A DNA stretch of 37,649 bases from a virus (Duplodnaviria; Heunggongvirae; Uroviricota; Caudoviricetes). The stretch's first letter is position 1. The number at the start of each line of letters is the position of its first letter. Of the stretch, positions 6,693-35,111 are shown piece after piece. Both the position numbers and the translations under genes were made by a program. The notes under the pieces are model-generated. The model did not search any database and was not told where the DNA came from. It worked only from the letters and a program-made list of their open reading frames with translations. Location: IMG/VR virus record IMGVR_UViG_2579778631_000021. The stretch is one strand, 5' to 3'.

Positions 6693-7400
6693 TTATGCCG
6701 CCTGTTTTAGCTCGTTAACTCTGATGTTCATTACCTGAACGCATTTAGCCTGCGCCTCCTCGTTTCCAGCCATTAATTGCCAGTCACGCTGATAACGCTC
6801 GATGAGTTTTTTCTTGTCAGTTTCTGTTGACGCATAATCGCTGAAGTCTTTCAGGATTTGTTCGCAGTCAACCGATGGAGATTTCTGGTTGGTATTTTCT
6901 GGTGATGGTTTGTTATCTGATGCTGGGATTGCCCATCCCGGCAGTGATGGAGGGAGCCAGTAAAATCCTGTTCCATCCTTCAGTTTTGCCCTGTGCCACC
7001 CCTGCTTTTTATCGAGAGATGTTTGTGCGAAACCTTCCTCAAGGTTATACAGATACCGACCGATTCCCCACTGAACGGCAGCGCGCTTCATTGCACCGGA
7101 ACGACCACCTTTGACGGCTTCTACCTGCGTGTTTTCAGCAGCATCCCATTTGGTTACCCATTCGGAATCAATCTTTATTGATATGCCGCATTCAACGCCG
7201 CCGTTGTTGGGAATATCGCGGTATTCATTGCGCCATCCTGCTTTGCCGCAAACATCGTCCAGACGTTTCATGATTGCCCGGTTCGTGACATAAGCCAGCA
7301 CCATAGCCCACACTTTGCCATCGCGTGTTTTACCGCTTTGCTGTATTCGCCATTCGATATCTTCAGGGCTGAATGGCTCATCGAATTTATTCAAATCCAT
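6693..7400 (-). CDS. Rad52-like single-strand annealing protein (Sak-type recombinase)
   Basis: 235-aa ORF directly upstream of ssb; recalled resemblance to phage Rad52/22 family annealases; GAGG SD. Confidence 0.6.
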   Translation of the reverse strand: MDLNKFDEPFSPEDIEWRIQQSGKTRDGKVWAMVLAYVTNRAIMKRLDDVCGKAGWRNEYRDIPNNGGVECGISIKIDSEWVTKWDAAENTQVEAVKGGRSGAMKRAAVQWGIGRYLYNLEEGFAQTSLDKKQGWHRAKLKDGTGFYWLPPSLPGWAIPASDNKPSPENTNQKSPSVDCEQILKDFSDYASTETDKKKLIERYQRDWQLMAGNEEAQAKCVQVMNIRVNELKQAA

Positions 7401-7487: not shown

Positions 7488-7658
7488 TCACGATCTCCCT
7501 TCTGGCGATACATTAACGCCTGCTGCGTGTACATGCGTCTCTGTAACTTGCTCTCCTTCACTGTGGTTGCAAGTGACATGAATATCTCCTTCGTTACCGA
7601 TTAATTCTTTCATCTGACGAATGAATTCTTCGTCTGACCAGTTATCTGTAAAACTCAT
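7488..7658 (-). CDS. Small hypothetical protein (56 aa), acidic
   Basis: Start MSFTDNWSDEEF; ATG overlaps stop of upstream small ORF (ATGA). Confidence 0.35.
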   Translation of the reverse strand: MSFTDNWSDEEFIRQMKELIGNEGDIHVTCNHSEGEQVTETHVHAAGVNVSPEGRS

Positions 7659-7807
7659 TTCCTGCGATACCACGGAAGGTTGATAGCTGATTTCATCGCT
7701 TTATTTGCTTCAAGCCACATTTTTGAATCACCAATAAATCTGGCTATTACTGCTTTGTTCTGTGCAGCTCGAAGCATCTGGTGATTAATGGCTATTTCAT
7801 TGCGCAT
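7655..7807 (-). CDS. Small hypothetical protein (50 aa)
   Basis: MRNEIAINHQMLRAAQNKAVIARFIGDSKMWLEANKAMKSAINLPWYRRK; GAGG SD; below ORF-track cutoff. Confidence 0.3.
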   Translation of the reverse strand: MRNEIAINHQMLRAAQNKAVIARFIGDSKMWLEANKAMKSAINLPWYRRK

Positions 7808-7947: not shown

Positions 7948-8916
7948 TTAGTAGGTTATTTTTGTTGCGAATACTTCGCCTTTTACGATGGCTGTTATGA
8001 TATTTTTAGCAACATCTTCTGATGCACCAACCTTGATAAGGTCAGCAAGTATTTTGTTATTCACTTCTTTCCGGTGAGCTTTATCCTTTGCTCTACGCTC
8101 TTCTTCGTCCTTGATTCTTTTTTCTTCTGCTATTCTGGCTTGCTCTTTTGCTTCAGCCTCGCGACGGATTCGTTCAGCCTCCTCCTGTGCTTTTCTGCGT
8201 TCTGCTTCAATTGCTGCCTGCTTTTCTCTTTCAGCTCGTTCTGCTGCCTCTTTTGCTTCGCGCTGTGCTCGTTGCTCGGCTTCAATGCGTTCACGCTCTG
8301 CACGTTCTGCTGCGGCCTTAGCTTCTGCTTCTCGCCTTGCTGCTGCTTCAATTTCGGCTTTTGCCTTTGCTTCGGCTTCTGCTCTGGCTTTCTCTTCAGC
8401 TTCTCTTTTTAAGCGTTCTTCATGCTCTCGCTTTTCCTGCTCCGCTTTGAGTCTTGCCTCTTCTCTTTGGCGGTCAAATTCGCGATCCATCAAAATAGCT
8501 ATTTCATGGTCAGACTCAATTTGCTTTGCGAGAGCTTCAGCTTCTGCCTTAGCTTCTTCTTCGGCTTTAATCCGCGCCTGTTCTTCCTCATAATCAGTAA
8601 GAGGCTGGCGCGCCTTGGCTTTCAGCTCATCAAGGCGATCGCGCACTGTCTTGCGGTTGGCATCAATTAGCTTTGGAATTTCCTTCAGTTCAGCAACAAG
8701 GTCTTTGCCAAGACCATCGAGATATGTTTTCGTCTGCGCAACTTTATACGCCAGAGAAGCGATCTCCTTTCTGCCCTTTGCCGTTGTGATATCAGGCACA
8801 AAGGACATAACTTCACGTTCAACCTTTTGAAGGATTTCTTCAATCTGGTCGGCAGACTGAAATACAGTCATTGCATTTGCTTTTTCAATAACAACTAAAT
8901 CTGTTACTTCACTCAT
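7948..8916 (-). CDS. Phage protein with long E/A/K/R-rich coiled-coil low-complexity region
   Basis: 322-aa ORF, strong GGAGGA SD; residues about 110-290 are EAKR repeats; function unknown. Confidence 0.5.
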   Translation of the reverse strand: MSEVTDLVVIEKANAMTVFQSADQIEEILQKVEREVMSFVPDITTAKGRKEIASLAYKVAQTKTYLDGLGKDLVAELKEIPKLIDANRKTVRDRLDELKAKARQPLTDYEEEQARIKAEEEAKAEAEALAKQIESDHEIAILMDREFDRQREEARLKAEQEKREHEERLKREAEEKARAEAEAKAKAEIEAAARREAEAKAAAERAERERIEAEQRAQREAKEAAERAEREKQAAIEAERRKAQEEAERIRREAEAKEQARIAEEKRIKDEEERRAKDKAHRKEVNNKILADLIKVGASEDVAKNIITAIVKGEVFATKITY

Positions 8917-8928
8917 ATATCCTCCGTC

Positions 8929-8956
8929 AAAAAATTGCCCTCACACTGGAGGGCAA
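8929..8956 (-). terminator. Rho-independent terminator on minus strand (tL1-like) upstream of recombination genes
   Basis: 8-bp stem TTGCCCTC/GAGGGCAA, 6-nt loop, followed on minus strand by 6-7 T; abuts SD of 322-aa gene. Confidence 0.5.
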
Positions 8957-9168
8957 AGAAGATTTCCAATAATCAGAACAAGTCGGCTCCTGTTTAGTTA
9001 CGAGCGACATTGCTCAGTGTATTCACTCGTTGGAATGAATACACAGTGCAGTGTTTATTAGTATGCCTGTCTTTTAACCACATCAGGCTCGGTGGTTCTC
9101 GTGTACCCCTACAGCGAGAAATCGGATAAACTCTATTCACCCCTACAGAGAGCAAAAGAGAAACGCCG

Positions 9169-9750
9169 ATGAACAACTCATGGTGGCAGGAACTAATGCA
9201 TTTTTTCCTGCAAGGAATGACACTTAAACAGTTGATTCATATGCTAATCATCCTAATCATATTGATTATTGTTATGCCTGTAAGCGTAAAAGAATGGATA
9301 AACCTGCATAATCCAGAAATCCTTCCTCATTACTGGATGTATTACATCCTGTTGTTTTGCGTTAGCTATGTGCTTAACGGCGTTGTTAATTCCGCTTATC
9401 ACGCTGTGACTGAAAGAATTGAGATATTCGCTGCTCAGAAGCGCAAATCTAAAGAAGAGAAATACGTGCAAGATTTGTTTGATTCGTTAACTCTTGGAGA
9501 AAGAGCGTATTTGGCATTCGCTGTAGCCGCTAATAACCAGCTAAAGACAGAAAAGGGAAGCCCTGAAGCAATCTCATTGCTCGAAAAAGGGCTTCTTATT
9601 CGGGTACCTTCTGCTACTGGATATCCTGAAATCGACCGTTTTGTTATCCCGGAACGCTATAGAAATGAGTGCTACATTAGGTTTGCTGGGAAGAAAGACA
9701 GTCTTATGGATGAACTTATCGCTCAGGATAAGCATGGCAAAAACAAGTAA
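9169..9750 (+). CDS. SieB-like superinfection exclusion membrane protein
   Basis: 193-aa ORF on opposite strand to pL operon, AT-rich, N-terminal hydrophobic segments; position and size as for lambdoid sieB; recalled similarity only. Confidence 0.45.
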   Translation: MNNSWWQELMHFFLQGMTLKQLIHMLIILIILIIVMPVSVKEWINLHNPEILPHYWMYYILLFCVSYVLNGVVNSAYHAVTERIEIFAAQKRKSKEEKYVQDLFDSLTLGERAYLAFAVAANNQLKTEKGSPEAISLLEKGLLIRVPSATGYPEIDRFVIPERYRNECYIRFAGKKDSLMDELIAQDKHGKNK

Positions 9751-9766
9751 TTAGCAAATTAATTTA

Positions 9767-10039
9767 TCATCTCGCCGTCAGTTGTTTTGATTTCCGGTAG
9801 CCTGCCGCGTAAATGGCTACGTTTGGCAGGCAAATACTTCCACTGCATTCATCTGCCTTCTTGCAGCGAAGGCTTCCGAGTGATGCTGCTTTGTCTGCTC
9901 TGACGCAACCAGAGAGCTTTAGCGCAATTTTTCGCGCCAGTCGCTGTTCTTGCATTGCCTGCTCACGTTGAGCCTGTCTGCGTGCTCTGCGGCGATTTCT
10001 GGCGTTATCGTCAGCCAGATATGTAATGACTACTGCCAT
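9767..10039 (-). CDS. N-like transcription antiterminator
   Basis: First gene downstream of pL and nutL; arginine-rich motif NARNRRRARRQAQREQ near N-terminus; GGAGG SD. Confidence 0.6.
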   Translation of the reverse strand: MAVVITYLADDNARNRRRARRQAQREQAMQEQRLARKIALKLSGCVRADKAASLGSLRCKKADECSGSICLPNVAIYAAGYRKSKQLTAR

Positions 10040-10233: not shown

Positions 10234-10277
10234 AGAATACTGTAGGTATTTTATTGTGTAAATACCCGAGGTATTTA
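10234..10277 (-). promoter_or_regulatory. pL promoter with OL operators
   Basis: Minus strand -35 TTTACA (10257-10262), 17-nt spacer, -10 TATTCT (10234-10239); inverted repeats AATACTGTAGGTATT (10236-10250) and AAATACCCGAGGTATTT (10260-10276). Confidence 0.55.
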
Positions 10278-10406: not shown

Positions 10407-10775
10407 TTAGTCAGCGAAGGTTAAGACGAGAATTACCTTAATGATGTCTGCTACAACAGACACGGCCATAGATAAACCAAAGACGATCCAAGCCATAGAG
10501 ATGTCTTCACTACCATCGTATAGAGTTCCGTAATCACTGGTGTAAGGCGTAAATGTCGCGCCTTGATACAATAGGTATAAGCTTGATCCATAGAGGATAA
10601 ATGCAGATATCCCTTGTATTGCCATGATCACCAGAATCATGAAACGAGCTGATCTATGCGCCCAAGCCTGGCTTATTTTTTCTGATAGAGATTTCGCAAT
10701 AAAAGCATGCGCTAAGCCGTAAATTGTTGAGATTGCCAACATCCCCAAAAAGCTTGCTATAGCGGTTCCAACCAT
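10407..10775 (-). CDS. Small polytopic membrane protein in rexAB position, co-transcribed with cI
   Basis: ATG at 10775 with AAGGGG SD (TTG at 10796 overlaps cI stop); about 122 aa with 3-4 hydrophobic helices; lies between cI and OL. Confidence 0.6.
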   Translation of the reverse strand: MVGTAIASFLGMLAISTIYGLAHAFIAKSLSEKISQAWAHRSARFMILVIMAIQGISAFILYGSSLYLLYQGATFTPYTSDYGTLYDGSEDISMAWIVFGLSMAVSVVADIIKVILVLTFAD

Positions 10776-10792
10776 AATCGCCCCTTGCGTGA

Positions 10793-11509
10793 TCAAACCA
10801 GCCTTAGTTTTGTCTCAATTGCAACGCCTATAATCTTGCAGTTTCCATTGATTGGCACGAGAGGCCATGCAGGATTAAGTCCCTTGAGGTATTTATTTCC
10901 GCCGTCGATTATCAGCTTCTTGAATGTTGCTTCGTTAGAGTCAGAAAGTTTTGCTATGACCAAGCTGCCGTTGATCGCCTCCCTTCCGGTATCGAAAAGA
11001 ACGAATGTTCCCTCTGGAATGCTTAACCCAACCGGTGCCGTCATTGAATCACCTTCCACTTTAAGCCAGAACGCATTACCTTGAATATGCGCGTCAGACT
11101 CAAGCCAAACATCTATGTCTTTAATGGTGTATGGTTCGCATGCTTCACACCACGAGCCAGCCTGGATACTGCTTAACACCGGATACCTCTTTCCTGCTCT
11201 GTATTCCCCTGCATACCTTACGTTGGCATCGCTCTTAAGGCTTTCTGCCTGTTCTGCAACCTTGGCAGCAATTGACTGGCTAAAATCAGCAATTGAGACT
11301 TGCAACAATCGTGCAAAACCAGATGCAACCTCAACGTTTAGCGCGTTTCTGCCATTAAGATAATGCCCTACCGCTCCTTGGGTGATACCCAGTTCATCAG
11401 CGATTGAGTATTGGGTTATTCCCAATTCTTTCTTTTTTGACTCATACAAAGCCTTAAGACGCTTAGCGTCTTCGAGCTGTTCTGTCGTCAGTGATTTTTT
11501 ATTTTCCAT
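10793..11509 (-). CDS. cI: CI repressor (HTH N-terminus, S24 LexA-like autocleavage C-terminus)
   Basis: 238 aa; N-terminus MENKKSLTTEQLEDAKRLKALYESKKKELGITQ resembles lambda cI; C-terminal GDSM and FKKL catalytic Ser/Lys motifs. Confidence 0.9.
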   Translation of the reverse strand: MENKKSLTTEQLEDAKRLKALYESKKKELGITQYSIADELGITQGAVGHYLNGRNALNVEVASGFARLLQVSIADFSQSIAAKVAEQAESLKSDANVRYAGEYRAGKRYPVLSSIQAGSWCEACEPYTIKDIDVWLESDAHIQGNAFWLKVEGDSMTAPVGLSIPEGTFVLFDTGREAINGSLVIAKLSDSNEATFKKLIIDGGNKYLKGLNPAWPLVPINGNCKIIGVAIETKLRLV

Positions 11510-12231: not shown

Positions 12232-12876
12232 ATGACATACGAAAATGACAAATTCCAGGTTCTGAAGAGCATGAAGGTGCCAGATGATTTTAAATCAAAT
12301 GGCTTTGTTTATGTGCTTTCGAATGAGTGCATGCCAGGAATTTATAAGATTGGGATGACTAAGCATTCACCAGAAGTTAGGGCTAAAGAAATTTCAGCCT
12401 CTACTGGCGTTCCTAAGCCATTTAAGGTGATAGCAGCCTTTCATTCAAATAATCCCGCATCAGATGAAAAACTCATTCATAAAGCCTTTGCAAAAGAGAG
12501 GCTTAGTGATAATCGAGAGTTTTTCAAGCTTGAAGATAATGATCTTTCTGAATCTCTAAATGAAATAAGGGCGCTGGTTGGCCCTGAAAGAAATGGCGAG
12601 ACGGCAGAATACGCAATTTACGACTCATTCATTTCTTTTCGCCATGAAAATGAGCTTGATCTTAATGAGGAGCTTATAGAGCAAGGTCTGGGTAGTGTAG
12701 TTGGTCATCTTCCTGCGGTGAAAAATTTCCTTATTCGCGCCGGAATTGCTTACGCGAAGCAACTGATAAGCAAATATAACTCATCGATAGTTATTAATAC
12801 AGATGGCAGTGTGGTGATGGTTAAGTCTCTTGAAGCCCAATGCTTTGATGCGGAGGTTGGAAATGAGCCTGGCTGA
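12232..12876 (+). CDS. T5orf172 (MUG113/GIY-YIG-like) domain protein, moron between cII and O
   Basis: N-terminal GFVYVLSNECMPGIYKIGMTKHSPEVRAKEISASTGVPKPFKV matches the T5orf172 signature; CAGGAG SD; AT-rich codon usage. Confidence 0.6.
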   Translation: MTYENDKFQVLKSMKVPDDFKSNGFVYVLSNECMPGIYKIGMTKHSPEVRAKEISASTGVPKPFKVIAAFHSNNPASDEKLIHKAFAKERLSDNREFFKLEDNDLSESLNEIRALVGPERNGETAEYAIYDSFISFRHENELDLNEELIEQGLGSVVGHLPAVKNFLIRAGIAYAKQLISKYNSSIVINTDGSVVMVKSLEAQCFDAEVGNEPG

Positions 12877-29525: not shown

Positions 29526-30226
29526 TGGCGGATTCATCACTGAATAATCCTGTCGCGGTTCAGGCTACGCGCCTTGATGCTTCAATTTTGCCACGCAATA
29601 TATTCAGCCAGTCTTACCTGCTGTATGTCATTAATCAGGGGGCTGATGTCGGCGCAATTGCCGGGAAGGCAAATCAGGCTGGTCAGGGCGCTTACGATGC
29701 TCAGGTGAAAAACGATGAACAGGATGTCGAACTGGCTGATCACGACGCAAGAATCACCGCAAACACAAAAGCGATAAATCTCCTTGAGGTCAGGTTAACA
29801 ACCGCCGAAGGGAAGATAGTCGTACTGCGTAGCGATGTTGATTACTTGCTGGATGAGGTTATCGATATTCAGGCGCATCTGGTCACTGTTGACCAAAGAC
29901 TGGATGGCGTAGAAAGCGATGTCTCTGGCATTAAGAGTGATTACGTATCGAAAACCGTAACAGAATCGCAGTCTCTTGCGTCACCGCTGGATGTAAAAAC
30001 ATCATATTCAGTTGATGGAATTCAGGTTGTTGGAGCAAGAAATACCGGATGGACTGCAGCCACAGGTACGCCACTTCTTGGCTCATTCAACGCTAACCAG
30101 TCATACACGGTCGGCACTACGTACACACAATCCGAAGTCGCAGCTATCGCTACAGGTTTGGAGCAGGCGCGGCAGCGTATTCTGGCGCTTGAAACAGCAC
30201 TTAGATTACATGGGCTGATTGACTGA
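29525..30226 (+). CDS. Tail needle gp26-like
   Basis: 233 aa [36 protein letters not shown]... with trimeric coiled-coil heptads and conserved C-terminus [17 protein letters not shown]. Confidence 0.9.
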
Positions 30227-32717: not shown

Positions 32718-35111
32718 ATGGCTAATTACCGTGATTTGTTAGAGCAGGCTGGCGCACGTTACGGTGTGCCAGAAGGGTTGATGACTGCACTGGGTGCCAA
32801 GGAGTCTTCTTACAACCCTGCCGCAGTAAGCTCCGCCGGGGCTGTAGGATTGACTCAGGTCATGCCTGGGACATGGCGTGATATGGGTTATACCGATGAG
32901 CAAATGCAAAACCCCGAATATCAGGCTGACGCTGGCGCGCGCTATCTGGCAAAGATGTACCAGCAGTTTGGTAACTGGCGTGACGCTCTTCAGGCTTATC
33001 ACGACGGTCCCGGCAACGTTATGAAGGCAAAGCGTGGTGAATATACTCCAGGACCTGAAGGCCGCGGTTACGTTGATGATCGCTTTGCTCAATGGGCGGG
33101 TGACCCGGTGACAGACTCAACAGTCGAACAGCGCGCCACCTCTGCAAAGGTACATCCTCAGCAAGACCCTAACAACCCGTTTGCACAACTGGAAGCACAG
33201 TCATCCGAACAAGTATCGGCATCAGGCGTGCAGTCAGACCCAAATAATCCATTTGCTCAGATTGAGCAGCAGGCAGACAGTCAGCAGCCACCTCAACCCG
33301 TAAGTTCTGTCACACCGAAACCTGTTCAGCAGCAAGGCGGAATAATGTCTGACCTTGGTAATGGACTTGCTGAAACCGGGCGCGGCTTACTACAGGCAGG
33401 AATCAACGTAGCGAACATACCTGCTGAACTCACTGATGCTGTAACAAGCGCGGCGGCTTGGGCTGGCGGTAAACTCGGTATTGGCGATGGTACATATCAA
33501 CCAGCACCACGAGTAACAACGCAGGGATTAGAGCAGGACTTTGGCCTTCAGCAAGGCGCGCTGACTCCACAAACGACAGAGGGAAGGGTATTTGCTGAAG
33601 CATTGCCTTACCTCACTCCTGCTGGCGTTGAGAGAACGGCAACACAGGCACCAACACTTGCTGGTCGAATTGCTCATGGGGCAACACGACTTCTCGCAGA
33701 AAACGCAGTTGGATCACTTGCTGCAAATAGTGCGAAAGATGATGCGGAAGCACTCGCCACCGATTTAGGCGTTGGTGTGTTGGCTGGCGGTGCTATTAAC
33801 GCTGCCGGACGTGGATTAGGTGCTGCTTATCGTGGCGTTCGTGGTGCTATTGCGCCAGAAGCGCAGCAGGCTATCAGATTTGCAGAGCGTGAAGGAGTTC
33901 CTCTGCACACCACAGACCTGTTACAGCCTACTTCCCGCGTCGGGAAAATGGCGCAGACTACAGCAGAAAATATCCCCCTGGCTGGCACAAGCGGAATGAG
34001 AGCAACGCAACAGGAAGCGAGAAGTCAGTTGGTGCAGAGATTTGCTGATAAATTCGGCGAGTACGATCCGGCAGTTGTTATTGACAGCCTTAAAGCGAAA
34101 ACATCAGGAATTCGGCGTGCCGCCGGTAATCGACTGGAGCAGGTTCAGAATGCTATGGCGGGAATAAACATTCAGCCTGCAAGAGCAATTCAGCAGATTG
34201 ATACAGAAATATCTAACCTGCAGAAGCTTGGTAAGGTTGCTGATAACGAGACTATTTCAAAACTTCAGTCCTATCGTGATGAGCTTGTTCGCAATGCTGG
34301 TCCTGATGGCCCGGTAAATCTGGATTTGAAGCAATTAAGCGATCTGCGCAGCCAGTTCAGAATGGACGTGAAGGGGGAGCGACCAGTGTTACCAAACCGT
34401 TCCGATGCTGCCATTCAGCGCGTTTACAAGGCGATGACAGACGATATCAATGGTGCCATTGGTCAGAATCTTGGCAACGATACTCTCCGTAAATATCAGC
34501 AGGCCAATGCCGTCTACGCTGACGAAGCGGCGAAACTAAAGAATACCAGGCTGAAGAATGTTCTCATGAAAGGCGACCTGACGCCGGAAGTTGTCAACAA
34601 CATGCTATTCAGCAAGAACAAATCGGAAATTAAGACGCTGTATAACTCAGTTGGTCGTGTTGGCAGGGCGCAAATGCGCAATGGCATCATTGGAAAGGCG
34701 ATGGAGAAATCAGGTGGTTCCCCTGACCAGTTCCTTCGACAGCTTAACATCCTGCAAAACCAGACTGGCATCACATTTAAAGGTCAGGATGCTGCTTATC
34801 TGAAAGGATTGAAAAACTACCTTCAATCCACGCAGCAGGCTGCAAAAGCGGCAGTAACAACACCAACAGGGCAGCAAACCATCCCGTTCATTATCGGATA
34901 TGGGACAGCAATGAACCCTGCGACAACTGGCGCAGCAGTAAGCTACGGACTTCTGACTCGCGCCTATGAGAGCGAGCCATTCAGAAATGCAATGCTCCGA
35001 ATGGCAAACACCCCACGCGGATCAACAGCGTTTGAGAAAGCCATGCAGCAGGCACAAAAGGCCATTAACGCCCTGACTCAGGGGGCTAAGTCTGATGCGT
35101 TGTCAGAATAG
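32718..35111 (+). CDS. Ejection protein at gp16 position with N-terminal soluble lytic transglycosylase (SLT) domain
   Basis: 797 aa; N-terminal KESSYNPAAVSSAGAVGLTQVMPGTW...AYHDGPG matches SLT-domain motifs; remainder is Ala/Gly/Gln-rich. Confidence 0.7.
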   Translation: MANYRDLLEQAGARYGVPEGLMTALGAKESSYNPAAVSSAGAVGLTQVMPGTWRDMGYTDEQMQNPEYQADAGARYLAKMYQQFGNWRDALQAYHDGPGNVMKAKRGEYTPGPEGRGYVDDRFAQWAGDPVTDSTVEQRATSAKVHPQQDPNNPFAQLEAQSSEQVSASGVQSDPNNPFAQIEQQADSQQPPQPVSSVTPKPVQQQGGIMSDLGNGLAETGRGLLQAGINVANIPAELTDAVTSAAAWAGGKLGIGDGTYQPAPRVTTQGLEQDFGLQQGALTPQTTEGRVFAEALPYLTPAGVERTATQAPTLAGRIAHGATRLLAENAVGSLAANSAKDDAEALATDLGVGVLAGGAINAAGRGLGAAYRGVRGAIAPEAQQAIRFAEREGVPLHTTDLLQPTSRVGKMAQTTAENIPLAGTSGMRATQQEARSQLVQRFADKFGEYDPAVVIDSLKAKTSGIRRAAGNRLEQVQNAMAGINIQPARAIQQIDTEISNLQKLGKVADNETISKLQSYRDELVRNAGPDGPVNLDLKQLSDLRSQFRMDVKGERPVLPNRSDAAIQRVYKAMTDDINGAIGQNLGNDTLRKYQQANAVYADEAAKLKNTRLKNVLMKGDLTPEVVNNMLFSKNKSEIKTLYNSVGRVGRAQMRNGIIGKAMEKSGGSPDQFLRQLNILQNQTGITFKGQDAAYLKGLKNYLQSTQQAAKAAVTTPTGQQTIPFIIGYGTAMNPATTGAAVSYGLLTRAYESEPFRNAMLRMANTPRGSTAFEKAMQQAQKAINALTQGAKSDALSE

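Follow-up and report, generated by a model that had tools for sequence, protein, structure and literature searches.

A probable sieB-esc-sas superinfection-exclusion locus in a lambdoid phage, with upstream repeats that appear to belong to a conserved RNA module of prophage accessory genes

The window, i.e. the whole stretch of 37,649 nucleotides that was analysed, contains an open reading frame of 193 codons that begins with ATG and lies directly downstream of N, on the strand opposite to the pL operon. The coding features at this locus are as follows.

9169-9750, plus strand: sieB coding sequence (193 aa), superinfection exclusion / abortive infection protein, assigned from Pfam PF14163, identity to P22 SieB and annotated relatives
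9241-9750, plus strand: putative esc, encoding truncated Esc, which inhibits SieB, from an in-frame internal ATG at codon 25 (M25)
9767-10039, minus strand: N antiterminator gene (Pfam N_peptide PF25694, 57.5 bits), convergent with sieB

The deduced SieB protein matches PF14163 with 90.4 bits (cut-off 26), covering profile positions 2-144 of 147. It shares 85% identity with P22 SieB over 191 aa and 24% with lambda SieB (E 4e-7). The annotated sieB genes of VT1-Sakai and phiSTEC801-Stx1a are 99% identical to the window gene at the nucleotide level, and a protein identical throughout is encoded in 25 IMG/VR loci. Judged by these similarities, the open reading frame is a true SieB, which agrees with the SieB-like identity proposed in the initial annotation. 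The same annotation described an AT-rich gene of 193 codons for a membrane protein, embedded antisense in the pL operon and convergent to N, and each of these points was borne out. The GC content is 39.9% compared with 47.9% for the window, N is found at the expected place on the minus strand, and the protein has a single strong hydrophobic segment at about residues 16-45, where the Kyte-Doolittle average over 19 residues exceeds 1.6 for window starts 12-29 and peaks at 3.0. The position and orientation of sieB are the same in lambda, P22, HK140 and VT1-Sakai. The surroundings include cI (10793-11509, minus strand), followed by Cro and CII, as well as the Kil gene (7655-7807, minus strand) and a Rad52-type recombinase gene (6693-7400, minus strand), and the immunity region around sieB is a normal lambdoid one. 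In superinfecting relatives, SieB halts the synthesis of macromolecules halfway through the lytic cycle, and abortion of the lytic growth of superinfecting phages that lack Esc is the known phenotype of both P22 and lambda SieB (PMC10461980).

The promoter, the RNA start and the esc coding sequence of P22 were taken from the curated record BK000583 and carried over to the window, which aligns without gaps to P22, lambda, HK140 and 2G7b. The block carrying the transferred promoter and RNA start is 96-100% identical. The 'sieB RNA start site' of P22, at 29727, falls on position 9139 of the window.

9102-9132, plus strand: PsieB promoter, by homology to P22 feature 29690-29720, with -35 TGTACC at 9102-9107 and -10 TAAACT at 9127-9132
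9105-9114, plus strand: direct-repeat copy 1, ACCCCTACAG, over the -35 position of PsieB and within the hairpin at 9097-9119, of which it makes up the loop, the 3' arm and the final base of the 5' arm
9139-9148, plus strand: direct-repeat copy 2, ACCCCTACAG, the first A of which is the mapped P22 sieB RNA start and, by homology, the 5' end of the sieB mRNA

The two hexamers are weak matches to the consensus and were missed by a consensus promoter scan. By homology to P22, the window phage would have its sieB promoter at 9102-9132 and start the RNA at 9139. In the P22 record, the esc coding sequence begins 72 nt downstream of the sieB ATG; the window ATG at 9241 aligns with this start, and the sequence around it is nearly identical to that of P22. 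The Esc start is conserved.

The direct repeats had been noticed in the initial annotation with the right spacing of 34 bp, but at 9095-9104 and 9129-9138, and the coordinates had to be moved by 10 nt to those listed above. The repeat extends to 17 nt, 15 of which are identical between the copies. The 37.6-kb window has two exact copies of ACCCCTACAG and no more, both of them upstream of sieB; for a one-mismatch search, 0.82 chance matches are expected per whole window. The annotation had also taken the repeats upstream of the gene, a palindrome included, to mark a regulated promoter. This holds for the direct repeats, which sit in the P22-mapped sieB promoter, but not for the palindrome, which lies outside the promoter region.

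The same stretch corresponds, on the opposite strand, to the small antisense RNA sas of P22.

9064-9173, minus strand: homologue of the P22 antisense RNA sas, from alignment of P22A-sas; beyond the 5' 35 nt, the remainder folds into predicted stem-loops
9097-9119, minus strand: sas hairpin II, UCUCG-c-UGUA-GGGG-UACA-CGAGA, predicted in every fold, with the antisense of copy 1 as its loop and 5' arm
9064-9097, minus strand: motif of about 32 nt (plus strand TGCCTGTCTTTTAACCACATCAGGCTCGGTGG) with interleaved complementary segments, candidate H-type pseudoknot and 3' domain of sas

P22A-sas was found to be 127 nt long by RNA-seq in a 2026 study (PMC13397905, Table 2), and the reported sizes disagree, since a review gives 105 nt. 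It aligns with the minus strand of the window from 9173 to 9064 with three substitutions and one indel over 111 nt. Over its first 35 nt, at the 5' end, the homologue is complementary to the 5' UTR and the start codon of sieB, and it contains the antisense of both direct-repeat copies. The sieB ATG (9169) is covered by its span, and the esc ATG (9241) lies outside. Later publications on the 1993 work describe sas as shifting translation of the sieB mRNA from SieB to Esc, which lets the phage escape its own exclusion (PMC12197685, PMC7067206). Homology with the published P22A-sas suggests that a leftward sas RNA may also be made by the window phage. A promoter scan gave no sigma-70-like candidate from which sas could start at 9173, and the sole minus-strand candidate in the 5' part of sieB has its predicted start near 9249. 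The P22 record AF217253 contains no sas feature.

Among 84 related loci the 110-nt block 9064-9173 hardly varies, even in those whose SieB is only 91-92% identical to the window protein. Two natural variants fall in hairpin II. One, 9114 G>A, affects the bulge and was seen in 15 loci; the other, 9101 G>A in 9 loci, leaves a G.U pair that exists on the minus strand alone. Across related loci, a repeat matching at least 10 of 12 positions at an offset of 32-35 nt was present in 46 of 107 distinct loci, compared with a maximum of 9 of 12 in shuffled sequences. This survey is the strongest evidence against a chance origin of the direct repeat. The diverged versions, which come from Klebsiella, Enterobacter, Salmonella F1055, Photorhabdus, Proteus, Providencia, Xenorhabdus and others, fall into the repeat classes ACCCCTACAG, ACCCCTACAA, TCCCCAACAACA and TTCCACAGTCAA; within each lineage the copies match one another at the offset of 32-35 nt, and copy 2 is preceded, about 7 nt away, by a TAnnnT hexamer in every diverged version. 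Outside the repeat core, the two copies of the 34-nt unit are about 50% identical. Since both copies change together in diverged prophages while the rest of the unit has fallen to this level, the core appears to be held identical by selection. A hairpin is retained at the position of hairpin II in the diverged loci, with different arm sequences. When G.U and A.C pairs were compared between strands in these variable hairpins, the minus-strand fold was more stable in 50 of 63, whereas individual wobble pairs point both ways, so that the strand asymmetry is mixed evidence.

The motif at the 3' end of the sas region has a much wider distribution. At least 120 viral contigs and many genomes of Enterobacterales carry the sequence TGCCTGTCTTTTAACCACATCAGGCTCGGTGG, always in the same orientation and in the same slot between the early-left genes and the repressor/cro genes. 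This slot with its motif occurs in Escherichia, Salmonella, Klebsiella, Enterobacter, Proteus, Providencia, Photorhabdus and Xenorhabdus, and in the Rac prophage of K-12. The motif lies upstream of more than 45 unrelated small open reading frames of unknown function. Ten slot proteins were sampled. All stayed below the Pfam thresholds; eight could be assigned to PHROG families, each to a different one and each of unknown function, and the remaining two had no PHROG match. A genome-wide scan with the motif pattern, in which 16 bases are specified, returned mostly chance matches in unrelated phyla, and only the Enterobacterales matches are real; a second scan for stem variants gave the Rac type and chance matches only. 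Directly after the motif comes a hairpin of variable sequence, of which 77 distinct versions with 38 different 3' arms were collected (mean z -2.1).

Within the motif, GCCUG..CAGGC is interleaved with CCAC..GUGG, which is the topology of an H-type pseudoknot, and the loops on the minus strand (3 nt, and 7 A-rich nt) fit such a fold. The GCCUG/CAGGC stem has compensatory variants in Rac (GCCCGG/CCGGGC) and in the related locus L298, and its wobble variants (L298 and the L377 type) pair on the minus strand only. No variation was seen in the CCAC/GUGG stem. A covariation count over 85 sequences showed pairing in 99.1% of cells and one double change, in a collection whose search pattern itself fixes the stems. 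We hypothesise that 9064-9097 may form a pseudoknot on the minus strand.

Relatives with a 'short' architecture have a single repeat copy; this architecture differs from the 'long' one seen at sieB by about 34 nt. The motif of the short relatives includes a site resembling an extended -10 promoter, and the predicted RNA start is at the hairpin loop. The Shine-Dalgarno sequence is overlapped by the 3' arm of their hairpin, and an ATG follows within about 15 nt.

To the left of the sas region lies a further conserved block that had been counted with the upstream repeats of sieB.

9007-9054, minus strand: palindrome hairpin of the pL-direction transcript, with a 12-bp core at 9017-9044
8929-8956, minus strand: tL2a-type intrinsic terminator of the pL operon, from a terminator scan, with stem 8935-8942/8949-8956 and U run 8934-8929

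The inverted repeat consists of GTGTATTCA at 9017-9025 and TGAATACAC at 9036-9044; a 9-bp inverted repeat had been reported here earlier and is present, with its end one nucleotide farther on than the 9043 given. The arms of the hairpin can be extended to 22 nt (9007-9028 and 9033-9054; 82% complementary) around a 4-nt loop. On the minus strand the core is 12 bp long with one G.U pair, and the same position on the plus strand is a C.A mismatch. Eight pairs (five G-C) and a loop of 6 nt make up the terminator hairpin, which is followed by TTTTTT on the minus strand; in HK620 the homologous site, located by an offset from the alignment, carries the annotation tL2A. The block 8929-9059 is 98.5% identical to lambda 33925-34055, and it folds strongly on both the minus strand (z = -6.4) and the plus strand (z = -4.8). 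Lambda, HK140, 2G7b and 39 of 81 IMG/VR loci carry ral, alone or accompanied by other genes, between the palindrome and the promoter block, a module that measures roughly 337 nt at the least, and P22 likewise has its ral module between the two. The palindrome and sas blocks are joined directly in 32 loci, as they are in the window and in VT1-Sakai. Because ral lies between the blocks in other phages, the palindrome is not part of the sieB control region, and it adjoins the sieB promoter in the window because the window phage has no ral. We read it as a probable RNA-type hairpin of the pL transcript, in a separate conserved block that ends at tL2a, and possibly as a processing or stabilising element. 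No Rfam family reached the gathering threshold anywhere in the window, and a search of 8900-9300 gave chance-level matches only, namely a RyhB-like one on the terminator (19 bits, E 0.42) and miRNA/lncRNA models.

Taken together, the region is in all likelihood a lambdoid prophage's sieB-esc-sas locus for superinfection exclusion, with the same organisation as that of P22. In the lysogen, a weak constitutive PsieB with its -10 at 9127-9132 would start the sieB mRNA at 9139. This mRNA would be translated into full-length membrane SieB, which would abort the lytic growth of superinfecting relatives, and also into the N-terminally truncated Esc from 9241, which would antagonise SieB. When pL fires, leftward transcription would pass over the 5' end of sieB and give rise to sas, from about 9173 to 9064 or beyond. 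As in P22, sas would block translation of SieB and spare that of Esc, so that the phage does not kill itself.

In this scheme the direct repeat acquires a possible function. Copy 2 would be the first 10 nt of the sieB mRNA, and the antisense of copy 1 would supply the loop (GGGG) and the 5' arm of hairpin II. Since the antisense of copy 1 forms a hairpin loop and arm and the mRNA begins with copy 2, the 5' end of the mRNA is expected to be complementary to that loop and arm. Identity between the repeat copies may be maintained because it allows pairing to nucleate between the 5' end of the mRNA and the sas hairpin loop, in the style of IS10 RNA-IN and RNA-OUT. We infer this role from the predicted folds and the co-variation of the copies. 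The short relatives lend it support, as their predicted topology is the same and the mRNA 5' end would there be the direct complement of the loop. The long form at sieB would then have arisen by a 34-nt duplication that moved the promoter downstream and kept the complementarity.

The same repeat could be accounted for in other ways. It might be the neutral relic of a 34-bp tandem duplication that shifted the promoter, with its conservation due to the recent recombinational spread of one block. The units 9105-9138 and 9139-9172 are indeed about 65% identical overall, the difference of about 34 nt between the long and short architectures fits such a relic, and the sas/promoter block is a mosaic unit common to otherwise different phages. 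However, a core of 10-13 nt is identical in both copies of each diverged lineage while the remainder of the unit has decayed, and at least three sequence classes show this same pattern; independent recent duplications in every lineage are improbable, and we consider a neutral origin unlikely. A little less probable still, in our judgement, is that the copies are tandem DNA sites, at -35 and +1, for one host or phage protein that regulates PsieB. These positions are typical of repressor sites, a spacing of 32-35 bp is close to three helical turns, and a protein bound to both copies would explain equally well why they co-vary between lineages. Yet there is no candidate for such a protein, phages whose regulatory genes differ (lambda, P22, HK620 and Rac) share the repeat sequence, and the single copy of the short relatives argues against tandem sites. 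We rate protein binding below loop pairing because copy 1 is always found in a hairpin with covarying arms, which a simple DNA site would not need.

Two further readings have very little probability. If the motif and hairpin acted on the plus strand, as a riboswitch-like or Shine-Dalgarno-sequestering 5' leader of sieB, the arrangement of hairpin arm, Shine-Dalgarno sequence and ATG in the short relatives would be fitting; against this, the P22-mapped sieB RNA start is downstream of both elements, the extended -10-like site of the short relatives would start the mRNA in the hairpin loop, the abundant small RNA of P22 is on the minus strand (PMC13397905), and the wobble variants of the motif stem favour that strand too. 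A leader function is hence very improbable. The chances are slighter again that the palindrome at 9017-9044 is an operator-like site through which the prophage cI regulates the sieB promoter, as the initial annotation had thought possible from its GAATAC half-site. Its arms do hold GTATTC and GAATAC, the half-site words of the phage operators, and each arm is overlapped by a match to the operator pattern AATAC-N5-GTATT. However, exact copies of that pattern exist in the window only at 10236, 10261, 11545 and 11570, and in the palindrome the half-sites stand in the reverse order, GTATTC-N12-GAATAC, 12 nt apart instead of 5. The match at each arm has two mismatches, and such matches number 24 in the window, true operators included, against 14.4 expected by chance, which is near chance level. 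The palindrome block is also present in phages with other repressors. The operators of lambda are of the TATCACCGCCAGTGGTA type, unrelated to those of the window; since the block is nevertheless almost identical in heteroimmune lambda, it cannot be an immunity-specific operator. The gap of at least 337 nt between palindrome and PsieB in phages with ral (lambda, HK140 and 39 IMG/VR loci) points the same way. We therefore rejected the palindrome as a cI operator, and cI control of sieB by this route is unsupported.

Returning to pairing between the sieB mRNA and the loop of sas, it is conceivable, though we advance it tentatively and at somewhat less than even chances, that the motif and its covarying hairpin make up a conserved antisense-RNA module, that sas-type control is general in the accessory-gene slot and works through pairing of the loop with the 5' end of the accessory-gene mRNA, and that the sieB repeat is the trace of a 34-nt promoter shift which preserved the complementarity between loop and 5' end. 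As a general device, pL transcription would produce a hairpin-plus-pseudoknot antisense RNA, which at the lytic switch would silence exclusion or defence genes that the prophage expresses. The structured repeats form part of an RNA-level control unit that appears to be common to a hypervariable accessory-gene slot in many enterobacterial prophages. If true, the module would explain how temperate phages avoid harm from their own prophage-expressed exclusion genes, and the motif with its hairpin would serve as a sequence tag for new prophage-expressed genes, possibly unrecognised defence genes.

The sieB gene, its promoter, Esc and sas have been known since 1993, and identical sequences are annotated in public phage records. 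That the upstream repeats belong to a conserved RNA module common to many prophage accessory genes appears to be undescribed. A literature search for the motif and repeat sequences found them in context only in the P22 small-RNA paper (PMC13397905); we found no description of the motif-hairpin module in the literature, and no Rfam family covers the region.

Among known systems, the leftmost elements of the locus can be compared with lambda and with Rac. In lambda, tL2a (tL2A in HK620, AF335538) is a G+C-rich 8-bp stem with a U run at the homologous position, directly upstream of the first gene past the ral/sieB region; the gene downstream of it is ea10 in lambda and a 322-aa open reading frame in the window. 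In the Rac prophage of E. coli K-12, KilS (b4833) is a leftward Hfq-associated small RNA that ends at an intrinsic terminator (PMC8175672). Its place between sieB and the first early-left gene is equivalent to window 8929-9059, which makes it a positional analogue; the two share no real homology, only a patch of 17 in 20 nt, and we rejected the palindrome/tL2a block as a KilS homologue. KilS does not correspond to the sas region either, as the motif and hairpin of Rac are found some 60 nt to the right of it.

The closest counterpart is the sieB/esc/sas system of P22, which was reportedly described by Ranade and Poteete in 1993. Apart from the closely similar protein in the same position and orientation, the promoter, the RNA start and the Esc start align exactly, and P22 sas differs from the corresponding region of the window at four places in 111 nt. 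Unlike P22, the window phage has no ral, orf78 and orf87 to the left, so that the 3' region of sas adjoins the tL2a block, and its repressor, operators and N gene are of a different type. Lambda sieB (NP_597779, 34482-35036) is more distant, with only 24% protein identity, and its promoter was identified by homology to P22. Lambda 34396-34480 nevertheless matches window 9064-9148 at 94%, both repeat copies included; the homology of this upstream block ends at the end of repeat copy 2, and ral and orf28 lie between the palindrome and promoter blocks of lambda.

In its predicted mechanism the locus resembles the antisense control of IS10, where the 5' end of RNA-IN nucleates on the loop of RNA-OUT and where the pairing is said to have been analysed by Kittle et al. 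in 1989. In both, the 5' end of the target mRNA would be complementary to the loop and one arm of a convergent antisense hairpin, with an overlap of about 35 nt. In contrast to IS10, no dedicated antisense promoter was found for sas, and the loop sequence of the long form is a duplicate of the target site rather than a true antisense copy of it. Furthermore, sas carries an extra conserved 3' domain.

Between the early-left genes and the repressor/cro genes of Enterobacterales prophages, at the accessory-gene position occupied by sieB, more than 45 unrelated small ORFs are preceded by a near-invariant 32-nt motif and an adjoining covarying hairpin. The motif loci counted are those of the window (9064-9097), of the related loci L090-L209 and L212-L327 (real hits), and of the Rac prophage locus L330. 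Two architectures are found downstream of the motif: the distance from its first nucleotide to the start codon is approximately 68 nt in one and approximately 102 nt in the other, with the 34-nt direct repeat present in the longer one. Among 10 sampled proteins encoded behind the motif, none reached the Pfam threshold, and eight matched PHROG entries, which belong to eight different families, all of unknown function. A single protein family (MSKQNDIPTFPV... / MSQKDDIPVFPV...) was found behind the short architecture as well as behind the long one (L141 vs L089), and contig L168 carries two motif-headed cassettes approximately 970 nt apart.

In the pL transcript, the conserved intergenic stretch 8929-9059 (minus strand), which corresponds to the lambda ral-ea10 spacer, folds strongly compared with shuffled sequences (z of -6.4), and its 3' end is a tL2a-type terminator. 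The strong fold and the terminator together make this block resemble in shape a small RNA that ends at a terminator; in Rfam, its sole match was a weak RyhB-like one (19 bits, E 0.42). A mosaic junction is located at 9059|9064; at this point lambda, P22-like and HK140-like phages have ral, either alone or together with orf28 and other genes. Of 81 related loci, 32 have the two sides joined as in the window and 39 contain an insert of approximately 337 nt; additional junctions near 9016 and 9049 are present in some related loci.

Within sieB, the following sites were noted:

9329-9343 and 9335-9349, within the coding sequence: a match to the operator pattern of the phage with one mismatch, ATTACTGGATGTATT, and an overlapping small hairpin, GGATGTATTACATCC
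9284-9256, minus strand: CTTACA-17-TATGAT, a promoter-like site with 9/12 matches

On the plus strand, a T-rich run comes after the small hairpin. By rough estimate, about one operator-pattern site with one mismatch is expected by chance alone. Judged from its sequence, the promoter-like site would start transcription near 9249 and leftward, antisense to the starts of esc and sieB; it does not agree with the published sas 5' end.

Three other ORFs of the window were also recorded:

10407-10796, minus strand: a hydrophobic ORF of 129 aa directly downstream of cI, with a 4-nt overlap with the cI end
7948-8916, minus strand: a 322-aa ORF, the first gene past the tL2a terminator
12232-12876, plus strand: immediately downstream of cII, an ORF carrying T5orf172 / MUG113 (GIY-YIG-like) domains

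No Pfam match was obtained for the 129-aa or the 322-aa ORF. The former, which occupies the same position as lambda rexAB, may be another prophage-expressed accessory gene. The latter has in its middle a long charged run with many E, A, K and R residues. Downstream of it lie Kil (7655-7807) and a Rad52-type recombinase (6693-7400).

Two further cases of the upstream module were noted, in HK620 and in Rac. The annotation of HK620 hkaP (L086 1002-1496) is that of a putative superinfection exclusion protein. Although it shows no similarity to SieB, its gene has the motif, hairpin and direct repeat upstream in common with sieB. The E. coli K-12 Rac prophage has the following version:

L330 4560-4672: a diverged motif copy and hairpin, upstream of sieB b1353

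KilS, an annotated small RNA of Rac, lies approximately 60 nt further left than this motif copy. The second repeat copy in Rac is slightly decayed (ACCCTTACAG), and the motif stem shows the compensatory pair GCCCGG/CCGGGC where the window-type motif has GCCTG/CAGGC. Rac shares the CCCC-loop hairpin with the window-type module.
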